The notes: a model not told the origin generated them from the letters alone. A stretch of 64,000 bases of DNA from an uncultured Chloroflexia bacterium (GCA_963763325.1 CAVXOL010000022.1:16737-80736), one strand, 5' to 3'. Positions 1 through 64,000 are shown, counted from the stretch's first letter. Numbers and translations are program-made.

Positions 1-1581
1 ACTGCAACGCTGATGACCGACCGCTTGAGGTTTTCGCTCGACGTGAACTTGTGGACTTCCTCGTCGCTGACTGGTGCTTTCGTCAGGATCGCGTTGCCCC
101 AGAGTGCCGTCGTCGGAAGCGGCCCCGAAGTAGAAGGGCATCTCGAGCCGCTGGCTGAGCCAGAGCACCTCGTCGATGCCGCTCAGCACCAGCCAGCCAC
201 GTCCGACTTCCTGAAGGATGACGATGTCCGGGTCGTTCAGCTCGATCGTCTGGGCAGTCTGCTCCAGGTCGAAGATGTTCTCGCGCGAGAAGCCGGCCTG
301 GATGTTGTAGGTCATGACGGTGACGGCCGCCGGCAGCGGGTTGATCTCTTTCGGCTTGGACCACGTGAGCGCTTGCAGGGCGCTGACGGTGACGAGGAAG
401 ACGGCCGCGATCGTGACCCAGATCCGCAGCGACGGCGGCTGCCAGGCAGGGTTGACTGTCGCTCGTGATCCGTTCACGAAGGCCCCGGCCAGCAACAATA
501 CCCAGGCAACGACGATCAGGACCGGCGGGCCGGTGTAGGTGTAGTAGGCGAACAGCAGGACAGCGTGCAGCAGCATCCCAACTGTCAGCCAGATAGACGG
601 GCCGCCGCGCATCTTCCAACGGCCCGGTTCGCTACCGAGCAGGGCCAGCGATAACAGGACATAATTCCCAGCGATTCCAAAAATCAGGGCGATCGCGCTG
701 ATGCCCGGCTGTTGCCACGAGACCCAGACGCTGAAGATCCCGATCGCAACCAGGATGAAGACAGCGGCCGGACTCTCGACCCTCAGCGACCGGAGCCAGT
801 CTCTTGTCCCGGCGATCGACGGCGGCGCGACCGCCAGCCAGCTGATCAACAGGCCCAGCAGTGTCCCGGCTGCGAGGACGCTCGCTGCGGCCGGGAAGTC
901 TGTCTCAAGCATCGTCTGCGCCAGCCCGAGGTTGCCGGTCATCAGGTGGAAGATCGCCAGCCCAGGGCCGAGCGCGATCAGCGATATGGCCGGCTCGTTC
1001 GTGACCCGTGGCGGGTCGAGGGAGATGACCATGATCAGCGCCGCGACGAGGATGAGGGCGACGACGATCGTTGTCGCGTGTGCCTGTGCGTTCGGCATCC
1101 AGGGCAGATCGACCGTCTCGAACCAGATTCGGATTCCAACATCCAGCGCCATGCCAAGCAGGACACCGAGGGCTGACGGATCGCGCAGCGACTGGAACAT
1201 CAGCGTCAGCAGCCAGCCCCAGCAGATGATGACGATTGCGCCGAGGATGACCCGCGCTTCCGGCGATTGCCAGAATTGCAGCACCAGCCGGGCAACTGCC
1301 AGCCCGACCGCTGCAATGCTGAGCGACAGCCGCCAACCGGCAGTCTTCCGTAGCAGCCCACCGAGGCCAATCGCCAGGAAGACTCCGAGGGCAATCGCCC
1401 CAAGCTCCAGCCGCCGGCTCTGATCAACGGTGAAGATGAGGTAGGCGACGAACACGCGCGTCGCTTCAAGCATCAGGACGGTTGCGGTTGCCGCCAGCAT
1501 GACGGCGTAGCCAGTCCAGGTTCCGGGCGCCTCAGGGGCCGGTAGTGGTTCCCTGGGCCGCGCTCTGGTCCTCGTCGCCAC
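1..1581 (-). CDS. Polytopic membrane protein with C-terminal endonuclease/exonuclease/phosphatase (EEP) domain; 3' end lies outside the window; one apparent frameshift near 95-120
   Basis: My own minus-strand translation from GTG 1581 (or ATG 1500/1473) stays open to position 1, so it is absent from the ORF track. It gives about 9 hydrophobic helices (e.g. 'GAIALGVFLAIGLGGLL', 'GAIVIICWGWLLTLMF'), then EEP-like motifs 'VTVMTYNIQAGF' and 'DPDIVILQEVGRGW'. After a 1-nt frame change it reads 'LWGNAILTKAPVSDEEV'. Confidence 0.6.
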   Translation of the reverse strand, partial: MATRTRARPREPLPAPEAPGTWTGYAVMLAATATVLMLEATRVFVAYLIFTVDQSRRLELGAIALGVFLAIGLGGLLRKTAGWRLSLSIAAVGLAVARLVLQFWQSPEARVILGAIVIICWGWLLTLMFQSLRDPSALGVLLGMALDVGIRIWFETVDLPWMPNAQAHATTIVVALILVAALIMVISLDPPRVTNEPAISLIALGPGLAIFHLMTGNLGLAQTMLETDFPAAASVLAAGTLLGLLISWLAVAPPSIAGTRDWLRSLRVESPAAVFILVAIGIFSVWVSWQQPGISAIALIFGIAGNYVLLSLALLGSEPGRWKMRGGPSIWLTVGMLLHAVLLFAYYTYTGPPVLIVVAWVLLLAGAFVNGSRATVNPAWQPPSLRIWVTIAAVFLVTVSALQALTWSKPKEINPLPAAVTVMTYNIQAGFSRENIFDLEQTAQTIELNDPDIVILQEVGRGWLVLSGIDEVLWLSQRLEMPFYFGAASDDGTLGQRDPDESTSQRRGSPQVHVERKPQAVGHQRCS

Positions 1582-1770
1582 CGTTCCCCCTCAGCTCCGA
1601 CTCGATCTATCGTGTCTGGCAAGGATTGTACGGGACGCCGGTACGTCGAGATGTCGGGAATCGAGGATCGGGAACAGGAAGTTACTAACCACCGATTCCC
1701 GATCCCCGACGCCAACGCATATGCGATGCTATGCAGGAATTGAGCCTGAAATCGGGAGGGGAACCAACAG

Positions 1771-3424
1771 ATGGCAAATACGTACGATGTTCTGATCACC
1801 GGCGCGAGGGTGATCGATGGGACCGGGAACCCGTGGTTCTACGGCGATGTCGCGCTCAGTGGCGACCGGGTCGCGGCGGTCGCGCCACGCGGGCGATCGA
1901 TCCGGCAAGTCGCGCGAGAGGTCGTCGATGCGAGCGGGCATGGTCGTCTGCCCCGGCTTCATCGACATCCAGAGCCACTCGCTGATCCCGCTTCTTCACC
2001 GACGGGCGCTCGCTCTCGAAGGTCACCCAGGGCGTGACGACCGAGATCATGGGCGAGGGTTGGACGCCGGCCCCGTTCGGCGGGCGGATCGGCCGAGGCC
2101 GTCGGCGCGTTCCGGGCGACTGCCCGAAGCAGACGTGGAGACGCGTCAAGTCCTGGAGCGCGCTTCCGCGACTGGCTGGACGACTTCGGCGACGCCGGCT
2201 CTCCGGTCAACTTCGGCTCGTTCCTCGGCGGCGGCACGCTGCGGAGTACGCCAAGGGCTGGGAGACTGGGCGACCCGACCCCGGAGCGAGATGGAGACGA
2301 TGCGCCGCGTCGTCGGCGAGGCGATGGAGGACGGCGCGTTCGGCGTCGCCACCGCGCTGATCTACCCGCCGAACGCCGTACAACGACCGACGCCGAGCTG
2401 CTACGAGATGTGCGCGCGTCATCGCCGCGCACCACGGCGTCTACATCACCCACATGCGCTCGGAGGCCGACGAGTTTCTGGAGGAGCTGGCCGAGACGAT
2501 CGACCTGGCCCGGCAGACGGGCTGCGCGCTGGAGCTGTACCACCTGAAGGTCGGCCGGCCAGCGCAACTGGCCCAAGATGGCCGACGGCGATCGAGATGA
2601 TCGACGCCGCCCGCGCCGAAGGGCATGGACGTCACCGCCGACATGTACCCGTACATCGCCGGCGGGACCGGCCTGGCGTCGGCGATCCCCGAACTGGGCC
2701 GCGGCCGACGGCAAGCTGCTGGACAATCTGCGCGATCCGGAGACGCGCGAGCAGATCCGCCACGAGATGCTGGAGCCGACTGGCGGCTGGGAGCCGCTGG
2801 CGACGCTTGGCCGGGCCGGAGGGCGTGCTCGATCGCCGAGCTTGCAGAGCCGGAGCAACCGGCAGTACATCCGGCAAGCGCCTCGTCCGAGATCGCCGAG
2901 GCGCGCGGCCAGCACTGGACCGACTGCGCTGATGGATCTGGTCACTCGAAGAGGAGGAGCTGGATCTTCGCGATCTACTTCATCGATGAACGAGGACAAC
3001 CTGCCGCTGCAACTCCAGCAGCCGTGGATGAAGATCAGCACCGACGCCGGCGGGCTCGATCCAGCGCAGGCCGGGCCACGCCGTCACCCACCCGCGCGCC
3101 TACGGTACCTACCCACGCGTGCTGGGCAAGTACGTCGCGCGAGGATGGTGTCATGACCGCTGGAGGACGCCGTCCGCAAGATGAGCTCGGCGGTCGCCGA
3201 CCGGCTCTGCCTGCGCGACCGCGGCCTGCTGCGCGCAGGGCATGTACGCCGATGTCGTCATCTTCGACCCGGACACCGTCGCCGACCGCGCGACCTTCGA
3301 GGACCCGCACCAGCTCTCGGTCGGCATCCGCGACGTCTGGGTCAACGGCCAGCGTGTCCTCGACAACGGCACCCATACCGGCGCGAAGGCCGGTATGCCG
3401 GTCTATGGCCCAGGCCGGAAGTAA
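1771..3424 (+). pseudogene. N-acyl-D-amino-acid deacylase (D-aminoacylase, amidohydrolase superfamily), multiply frameshifted as assembled
   Basis: SD 'gggagggg' lies before ATG 1771. Homologous pieces are spread over all three + frames: 'MANTYDVLITGARVIDGTGNPWFYGDVA', 'VVCPGFIDIQSHS', 'VTQGVTTEIMGEGW', 'MRRVVGEAMEDGAFGVATALIYPP', 'YITHMRSEADEFLEEL', 'DVTADMYPYIAGGTGL', 'MYADVVIFDPDTVADRATFEDPHQLSVGIRDVWVNGQ'. At least 6-8 frame changes. Confidence 0.8.
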
Positions 3425-62890: not shown

Positions 62891-62918
62891 GTTCGCTAGT
62901 TCCCCCGACAACGAGTCG

Positions 62919-64000
62919 CTAGACCGGTCTAATCTGGTAGATGACGCCGCGACCGGTGTCGAGGACGTAGAGAGAGCCGTCGAGGCTGCTGGCCATTGCG
63001 GTTGGGCGGTCGAACCCGGTGATGAAGTCGACGATGGCAGCCGGGCCGGAGGCGCTGGAACCACTCGACGGGGTTGCGACGCCGGGACGATCGTCGGGGC
63101 GGGAGGGCTGGAGGCGGACAATGCGGCTGTCGGCGAGGGCGAGCATGTCCTGATATGGGTCGCCGGAGGTGCCGTCGGGACGGTAGAGGACGAGGTCCCG
63201 GATGGTTGAGAACTGCGAGGCGTCGAGCAGGATTCGCTCAGTCCCGCTCTCTGGCAGGTATTGGGTGAGCTGGCCGGCATCGTCAATCAGCCAGATTGCT
63301 CCGGCGTCGTCGACGACCAGTGATGTGACGGTTCCGGCGTCGCGGCTGGATGATTCGATGTCTTCTTCGTCGAGCGCGTCCGGCCCGATCTCGTAGAGCC
63401 CTGCCGAGCCGGTTGTCGGTGTCGCGGAGCTGGTCGTGGTTGTGCGGTCGCCGGTCAGGTAGAGCGTTGCTTCCGGGCCCGGCGCGAGGTGGACGGATTC
63501 GCGCTCGAAGCTGCCGTCGATGATGGCTTCGCTGCTGTCGGCGACGCCGTTTGCGTCCAGATCGTGGTAACGGTGCAGGCCGCTGTCGTCTACGACATAC
63601 AGGTCGGTCCCGGCCCAGATGAAGCCGGCGGGGTTGGCCAGATGCTCGACGAGGGTGGTCGGTTCGTCGTCGGGCTTGCGTGGGTCGAGCAGCTCGATCC
63701 GACCGTCGCTATAGCCCAGCGCAAGCTTGCCGTCGGGGGTGACGGCAATGTCGTAGACATCGCCGACTTCGGCGAGGGCGACGGCGCGGTAGCCGTCCGG
63801 AAGCGAGAGGCCGGCAGCCTCGTCCATGAGCGGGAGGACCTGGCGCTGCTCGGAAACGGCAGCCTCCGCGCCAGGGTCGTTGCCGTAGCGCCAGTGGTAG
63901 TAGTGGCGTCCGGCGCTGGTCAGGCTGAAGCGTTCGGCCAGCGGCAGATCGGGCGTGTAGACGACGACACGGCGCTCGAAGAGTTGGACAAGGCTGATCC
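62919..64000 (-). CDS. Beta-propeller repeat protein (NHL/SGL/soluble sugar dehydrogenase-like), 5' end outside the window
   Basis: ORF 62919..63827 extends upstream in frame to the window edge ('ISLVQLFERRVVVYTPDLPLAERF...'). Repeated 'G.LYV.D..G.I' blades end in 'SLDGSLYVLDTGRGVIYQIRPV*'. Confidence 0.6.
   Translation of the reverse strand, partial: ISLVQLFERRVVVYTPDLPLAERFSLTSAGRHYYHWRYGNDPGAEAAVSEQRQVLPLMDEAAGLSLPDGYRAVALAEVGDVYDIAVTPDGKLALGYSDGRIELLDPRKPDDEPTTLVEHLANPAGFIWAGTDLYVVDDSGLHRYHDLDANGVADSSEAIIDGSFERESVHLAPGPEATLYLTGDRTTTTSSATPTTGSAGLYEIGPDALDEEDIESSSRDAGTVTSLVVDDAGAIWLIDDAGQLTQYLPESGTERILLDASQFSTIRDLVLYRPDGTSGDPYQDMLALADSRIVRLQPSRPDDRPGVATPSSGSSASGPAAIVDFITGFDRPTAMASSLDGSLYVLDTGRGVIYQIRPV

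Follow-up and report, generated by a model that had tools for sequence, protein, structure and literature searches.

Clustered single-base frame breaks in a 64-kb segment of an uncultured Chloroflexia genome are very probably errors of the deposited sequence

The stretch of DNA analysed here (the window) comprises 64,000 nucleotides of a contig from an uncultured Chloroflexia bacterium (GCA_963763325.1, CAVXOL010000022.1:16737-80736). Its G+C content is 65%, and its proteins are nearest to those of Thermomicrobiales (Chloroflexota) metagenome bins, with amino-acid identities of only 67-89%. The window holds, among others, genes for a D-aminoacylase, a P-type cation ATPase, a GH65 glycoside hydrolase, Lon protease, enzymes of protocatechuate degradation and histidine biosynthesis, and a REP-associated tyrosine transposase (RAYT). 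Alignments, a codon-usage trace and family models together locate about 69 frame breaks in 15 of its about 51 recognisable genes (Table 1). An earlier reading of the same DNA (the original prediction) had put the damage at about 20 of about 60 genes; fewer broken genes could be verified, in about equal proportion. From the direction, context and distribution of the breaks we judge, with a probability of roughly 0.92, that they are errors in the deposited sequence and not mutations of the organism.

Intact homologues were aligned to the DNA with a frameshift-aware protein-to-DNA aligner that allows changes of frame, written because plain tblastn passed straight over the shifts in lon and masked them. 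A Viterbi frame trace based on codon usage and trained on intact genes was run over the whole window; it superseded a simple frame plot of G+C at third codon positions, which was too noisy, and found the same break positions in lon without homologues. Frame-corrected translations from the Viterbi map were checked against family models (Pfam, NCBIfam/TIGR) and PDB proteins. The models match over the junctions for the ATPase domains, GH65, Dioxygenase_C, Lyase_1, PhoX, NMO, His_biosynth and GATase.

Indels were called at the nucleotide level by DNA alignment (blastn) to three contigs of relatives, two of which (L081 and L082) are syntenic with the window and were reached via two homologues. L081, from a Thermomicrobiales bin, carries intact genes for the amidohydrolase, the ATPase (929 residues), a RAYT and GH65; L082 has an intact D-aminoacylase (542 residues) and ATPase (931 residues), and L083 the intact C-terminal half of lon. 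Comparison with relatives had been proposed in the original prediction, and the orthologues of broken genes that these three contigs carry are uninterrupted at the same positions. Homologues of hisA and hisH came from a hisF search of the genome collection, which had distant bacteria among the matches listed (65-74% identity).

Table 1. Genes with frame breaks and long clean stretches (positions and strand relative to the window; +1, -1 and +2 denote the class of frame change)
Feature	Coordinates	Strand	Breaks or content	Basis
Membrane protein with endonuclease/exonuclease/phosphatase-like C-terminus, truncated by window start	1-1510	-	probable +1 at ~103	Viterbi trace
D-aminoacylase (Amidohydro_3)	1771-3424	+	22-32 breaks, 1895-3237, ~1 per 45 nt	protein and DNA alignment
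P-type cation ATPase	3478-6278	+	14 events by DNA alignment; 13-14 overall	DNA alignment, Pfam
GH65 glycoside hydrolase	6501-8759	-	one single-base insertion ~6937; other 2.1 kb gap-free	DNA alignment, Pfam
Lon protease	22342-24906	+	7 events: 23086 (-1), 23268 (+1), 23356 (+1), 23514 (+2), 24228-24250 (+1), 24260 (+1), 24387 (+1)	protein and DNA alignment, Viterbi trace
NAD-binding 6PGDH-like/DUF1932 oxidoreductase	27065-27996	-	3 breaks: ~27387, ~27540, ~27652	Viterbi trace, Pfam, PDB
Protocatechuate 3,4-dioxygenase beta subunit (pcaH)	31375-32114	-	one break ~31864, -1 or +2 class	Viterbi trace, family models
3-carboxy-cis,cis-muconate cycloisomerase (pcaB)	32800-34198	+	one +1 ~33156	Viterbi trace, family models
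Alkaline phosphatase PhoX	34462-36392	-	one +1 ~36186	Viterbi trace, Pfam
YdbT-like protein, repeated bacterial PH domains	39962-41425	+	one +1 ~41170	Pfam
Nitronate monooxygenase (NMO)/FabK-like enzyme	44050-45000	-	one +1 ~44697	family models
Coiled-coil protein	47028-48159	-	one +1 ~47805	Viterbi trace
hisA	48156-48870	-	2 breaks: ~48535 (+1), ~48600 (-1 or +2)	protein alignment, Pfam
hisH	48990-49658	-	2 breaks: ~49270, ~49380, both +1	protein alignment, Pfam
RAYT (Y1_Tnp)	54644-55140	-	one +1 ~54867	protein alignment, tblastn, Pfam
Clean stretch	6938-23085		16 kb, 13 genes, mostly <67% GC	Viterbi trace; full-length Pfam coverage; longest-gap statistic
Clean stretch	54868-64000		9 kb; tsaD, rimI, tsaB, tsaE, EamA, P450, others	Viterbi trace; full-length Pfam coverage

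The gene for D-aminoacylase is the most densely interrupted. Protein alignment with three homologues (P0121, P0126, P0124) places 22-25 shifts in it, with a corrected identity of 81% and no stops, and blastn alignment with its intact orthologue in L082 opens 32 gaps, namely 30 single-base insertions and two single-base deletions. In the adjoining ATPase gene, alignment with L081 and L082 yields single insertions at 3936, 4123, 4292, 4650, 4679, 5073, 5281, 5290, 5402, 5709 and 5944, a 2-nt insertion at 4042 and deletions at 4591 and 4880. Its DNA is 85.6% identical to that of L081 with about 16-20 gap openings; once corrected, the protein shares 822 of 927 residues with the homologue P0241, without a stop, and the Pfam domains cross the junctions. 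The following GH65 gene served as an internal control, a near-intact neighbour: its alignment with L081 has 82.8% identity over 2108 nt and one gap, and Glyco_hydro_65m crosses the junction. The ATPase is strikingly conserved across phyla, at 76-85% amino-acid identity to proteins labelled Thermomicrobiales, Ilumatobacteraceae, Gaiellaceae, Acidimicrobiia, Acidobacteriota and Actinomycetota, a sequence pattern that suggests recent horizontal spread. L081, which is from the closest relative, has an additional gene of 393 residues between D-aminoacylase and ATPase (L081 686-1867), where the window has none (3425-3477), and a RAYT between ATPase and GH65 (L081 4742-5269), where the window again has none (6279-6500), its own RAYT lying 48 kb off.

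For lon, four homologues (P0005, P0014, P0023, P0001) concur on the breaks in the frameshift-aware alignment, with no stops. Aligned with L083 DNA, its C-terminal half has exactly three single insertions. The original prediction had seen here a compensating pair near 24240 and 24395; the sites are instead three +1 insertions (24228, 24260, 24387) that sum to a restored frame, and a true +1/-1 pair is ruled out by the DNA alignment to L083. Overall, what had been read as compensating pairs consists for the most part of successive +1 insertions rather than +1/-1 pairs.

The DUF1932 model crosses one of the junctions in the oxidoreductase, and the corrected protein aligns unbroken over all three to PDB 1i36 and 3qsg. 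Corrected pcaH corresponds to positions 2-219 of 220 in TIGR02422 and corrected pcaB to positions 4-338 of 338 in TIGR02426, both above the cut-off (the curated one for pcaH), and Dioxygenase_C and Lyase_1, respectively, cross the junctions. In phoX the break divides a twin-arginine-type leader, RRISRRGVLKAGLAAGA in the upstream frame, from the catalytic domain, and the PhoX domain begins directly past the junction. The first three bPH_2 domains of the YdbT-like protein are in the main frame and the last one (41102-41422) in the shifted frame. The corrected nitronate monooxygenase matches TIGR03151 from position 7 to 293 of 307 in a single stretch over the junction, in agreement with Pfam NMO.

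Both breaks in hisA were obtained by frameshift-aware alignment to hisA open reading frames (ORFs) of L003 and L027, and His_biosynth matches over both (positions 2-227 of 228). Those in hisH were obtained with hisH ORFs of L027, L077 and L069, and GATase spans both (positions 1-187 of 190). At least three breaks had been expected in hisH; two were found, and the same alignment to the three hisH ORFs revealed no third. In the other heavily hit genes (D-aminoacylase, ATPase, lon, oxidoreductase, hisA) the counts equal or exceed those of the original prediction. The coiled-coil protein between hisF and hisA, inside the histidine operon, has 373 residues and no family match; in a three-frame translation its coiled-coil sequence resumes in the other frame. 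The break call there is one made without homologues. In the RAYT gene the break follows from the frameshift-aware alignment and from tblastn with the RAYT of L081, and the downstream frame holds only the C-terminal half of Y1_Tnp. The first gene switches frame at 103/104 in the Viterbi trace and its corrected translation continues smoothly; with no family match to back it, this break is rated as probable only.

Every coordinate named in the original prediction has a break within about 20 nt (1943, 1991, 4042, 4123, 6937, 23086, 23268, 24228-24260, 24387, 31864, 33156, 36186, 41170, 47805, 48535 and about 48600). The single breaks it had noticed in GH65, pcaH, pcaB, phoX, ydbT, NMO, the coiled-coil gene and RAYT are likewise present, as are, in the corrected proteins, the four catalytic motifs it had quoted.

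The indels are strongly directional. DNA alignments with the three relatives count 46 insertions in the window, 45 of a single base and one of 2 nt, vs four single deletions; D-aminoacylase, ATPase and GH65 contribute 43 insertions and all four deletions, lon the other three insertions. By our own arithmetic, 46 insertions among 50 indels have a binomial P of about 2e-10 under equal rates. Among all events, 59 of 69 belong to the +1 class, including eight of the nine isolated single breaks, and as these are mostly +1, the isolated breaks belong to the same process as the dense clusters. Among the inserted bases, C accounts for 21, G for 13, A for 6 and T for 4, which gives 77% G+C, close to the local 69%.

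Slippage in runs is the main source of single-base frameshifts. Here, of 42 inserted bases, 31 have a run length of 1, nine belong to a run of two and two to a run of three. Inserted bases lie outside any run more often (74%) than random positions do (62%) and are thus less associated with runs; with 31 of 42 outside runs, a homopolymer association of the indels was rejected. No 3-mer or 4-mer is enriched at the insertion sites after correction for multiple testing, and a site motif, for instance a methylation motif, was rejected as well.

This spectrum bears on the possibility that the decay is real: D-aminoacylase, cation ATPase, Lon, histidine biosynthesis, protocatechuate degradation and other functions would have been lost very recently through many independent frameshifts. 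The deposited sequence does contain the breaks, each affected protein would be cut short by them, and pseudogenes are numerous in genomes under reductive evolution (PMC6054270). As in leaf-nodule Burkholderia and Mycobacterium leprae, a large share of the genes is interrupted, with metabolic and housekeeping genes included. Natural pseudogene sets, however, are characterised by deletion bias, varied indel sizes, nonsense mutations and relaxed constraint (PMC6054270, PMC2817411), none of which is seen here. The ratio of 46 insertions to four deletions runs counter to the deletion bias of small prokaryotic indels in every surveyed group (PMC2817411). None of the events requires a slippage-prone run, and nonsense codons are lacking.

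The damage is indeed restricted to indels, as the original prediction had it: no frame-corrected alignment (lon, ATPase, D-aminoacylase, hisA, hisH, RAYT) contains an in-frame stop. The mismatch fractions at codon positions 1, 2 and 3 are 0.116, 0.073 and 0.325 in D-aminoacylase, 0.085, 0.044 and 0.289 in the ATPase, and 0.067, 0.028 and 0.276 in lon. Third-position mismatches are thus 3-10 times as frequent as second-position ones in the broken genes, and the near-intact GH65 has the same pattern. D-aminoacylase, with its about 30 indels, diverges from L082 by 17%, the ATPase by 20% and GH65 by 24%, so there is no excess of substitutions. By these alignments, the substitution pattern of the broken genes is that expected under full purifying selection. 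Dead genes also gather nonsense and non-synonymous changes, and further hits in such a gene should be no commoner than in spacers and be accompanied by many substitutions; in D-aminoacylase, about 30 indels fall within 1.65 kb with no surplus of substitutions. Together with the relation to base composition described below, which crosses gene borders, this makes recent pseudogenisation very unlikely.

The breaks are clustered above chance, in agreement with the original prediction: the variance/mean ratio is 10 in 1-kb bins; without the first 7 kb it is 2.0, and the two longest clean gaps have a P of about 0.002. Its claim of clean stretches is also borne out, with no frame switch in 6938-23085 or past 54867. 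Break density rises with local G+C from 0.1-0.2 per kb below 66% to 1.3 per kb at 66-69% and 4.7 per kb at 69-72% (Spearman rho = 0.34, P = 5e-7). Within 1.5-8.8 kb rho is 0.51, and the relation persists without the first 7 kb. Two dense blocks, 1895-3237 (69.7% G+C) and 3936-5944 (70.5%), flank the clean interval 3238-3935 (65%), which covers the end of D-aminoacylase, the spacer and the start of the ATPase gene, so that the block borders disregard the gene borders. Since density follows base composition and disregards gene borders, the process behind the breaks appears technical, not selective.

A technical origin could also differ from a GC-linked lack of correction. The breaks could be artefacts caused by reads of related organisms that were mis-mapped onto highly conserved genes, giving a collapsed or mixed consensus, and the original prediction had named multi-mapping conserved genes among the possible causes. 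The ATPase, with the cross-phylum identity given above, is unusually conserved, and lon and the his genes are conserved too. Yet the most conserved genes are clean, namely recA (full RecA coverage), hisF (73% identity to a Verrucomicrobia gene), tsaD and an ABC ATPase, and poorly conserved ones are broken, i.e. the coiled-coil gene, RAYT, ydbT and D-aminoacylase (best match 67%). A mixed consensus would also add substitutions and indels in both directions rather than almost pure +1 insertions. Mis-mapping as the cause is accordingly judged unlikely.

Alternatively, the extra bases could be real and be bypassed, by programmed frameshifting or by a deletion-type editing of the transcript. Their removal does restore good, conserved proteins, as an editing system would need. 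Programmed ribosomal frameshifting (prfB, dnaX, IS elements) likewise encodes a functional protein over a change of frame, and insertion/deletion RNA editing in organelles (Physarum mitochondria, kinetoplastids) likewise combines densely frameshifted DNA with conserved proteins. Programmed sites, however, are single, slippery and conserved among relatives, whereas a single gene of the window has up to 30, with no common motif or slippery sequence, at positions where the genes of the relatives are uninterrupted. Editing would have to remove nucleotides at unrelated contexts, and would leave unexplained that break density follows G+C rather than gene identity and that neighbouring genes are clean. 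To our knowledge, insertion/deletion RNA editing occurs only in some eukaryotic organelles, and we know of no system for frameshift bypass or nucleotide removal of such a kind in bacteria. We regard this explanation as having next to no probability. Scarcely more credible is the more general case that the DNA itself carries the extra bases, whether through a burst of template-independent +1 insertion mutagenesis at GC-rich tracts or with a bacterial system that removes nucleotides from transcripts.

The reading of the breaks as sequence errors is supported by the insertion bias, the lack of a run or motif context, the absence of stops, the maintained selection, the intact orthologues and the tracking of G+C. 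The original prediction had preferred a regional error of consensus or polishing over old pseudogenes, and every indirect test concurs with it. The error process would have put single random bases into the consensus and now and then lost one, mainly where local G+C exceeds about 66-69%. The contig probably derives from noisy single-molecule reads or another consensus of low support, most of which a later correction, probably with short reads, would have cleaned; the GC-richest stretches, short of accurate reads, may have escaped it.

False pseudogenes that stem from errors in long reads are on record (PMC12007338). The closest match among known systems is this familiar problem of error-prone assemblies, in an unusual flavour that is insertion-only and not linked to homopolymers. 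As in the false pseudogenes of long-read or hybrid assemblies, single-base indels split conserved genes without nonsense mutations, orthologues elsewhere are intact, many ORFs are split with perfect catalytic motifs, and known errors persist where polishing fails.

Several observations weigh against this explanation. The artefact was deduced from the sequence itself. Published consensus error profiles of nanopore and HiFi data are dominated by homopolymer-linked indels, often deletions, unlike the pattern here, in which 74% of the events lie outside runs and more than 90% are insertions. Published insertion/deletion ratios for continuous long reads vary, and the pattern singles out no platform. 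Local G+C is only a partial predictor: hisF (70.2%), a GNAT gene (69.0%), HDAC (68.1%) and tsaD (67.9%) are GC-rich yet clean, and lon, at 65%, carries seven breaks. Breaks are, moreover, detectable in coding sequence only, which is slightly GC-richer than the spacers.

The intergenic regions of the window contain two families of palindromes. The first comprises four perfect or near-perfect palindromes of 21 nt similar to GGACAGGTCTGAGACCTGTCC (28506-28526, 41777-41797, 55182-55202 and 56011-56031), which plausibly represent REP elements on which the RAYT at 54644-55140 acts. Two GGACAGGTCTGAGACCTGTCC copies (at 55182 and 56011) bound an intergenic segment of 830 bp that adjoins RAYT (55182-56031). 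It includes a tract of about 290 nt composed of G and A only (55240-55530; longest pure purine run 100 nt) and G homopolymers of 21, 14, 11 and 9 nt (55335-55766), with a GC skew of up to 0.28, and could be a G-quadruplex-rich REP-bounded element or a further sequencing artefact. The second family consists of tandem GC-rich hairpin repeats of the type GCCCCCTCCCC-loop-GGGGAGGGGGC in the hisA-hisH spacer (48890-48982) and, downstream of recA (29930-30010), a long inverted repeat that resembles them. There, the C-terminal 70 or so residues (29863-30076) of an ORF with a metallo-beta-lactamase fold (29863-30747, minus strand) look non-coding and enter the palindromic repeat. The true stop of this ORF may have been lost through an undetected frame error, or the ORF may simply read through.

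Three stretches (37960-39420, 45000-46280 and 61970-62930) have a G+C content of about 60-62% and a weak coding signal, and their ORFs are without a Pfam match save for one MerR-like helix-turn-helix (residues 174-231 of the ORF 44712-45569). Foreign or mobile DNA is one possible origin, genes damaged past recognition another. Pfam and NCBIfam matched none of the ORFs of the low-GC stretches at 37.96-39.4, 45.6-46.6 and 62.1-62.9 kb, nor the C-terminus of the first gene; breaks may or may not be present there.

From their sequences, there is hardly any doubt that the affected genes are whole and functional in the organism. Taken at face value, the deposited sequence would lead annotators to list about 30% of the window's genes wrongly as pseudogenes or split ORFs, and the metabolic reconstruction, completeness estimates and pseudogene counts of this genome would be skewed, with the GC-richest genes preferentially affected. 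The signature of the breaks (insertions only, outside homopolymers, linked to G+C) offers a discriminator between artefact and true decay that does not need reads. The value of the finding is that of a data-quality warning, and its biological significance is most likely none: Lon, histidine synthesis, the protocatechuate pathway and the other functions hit should not be scored as lost in this bacterium.

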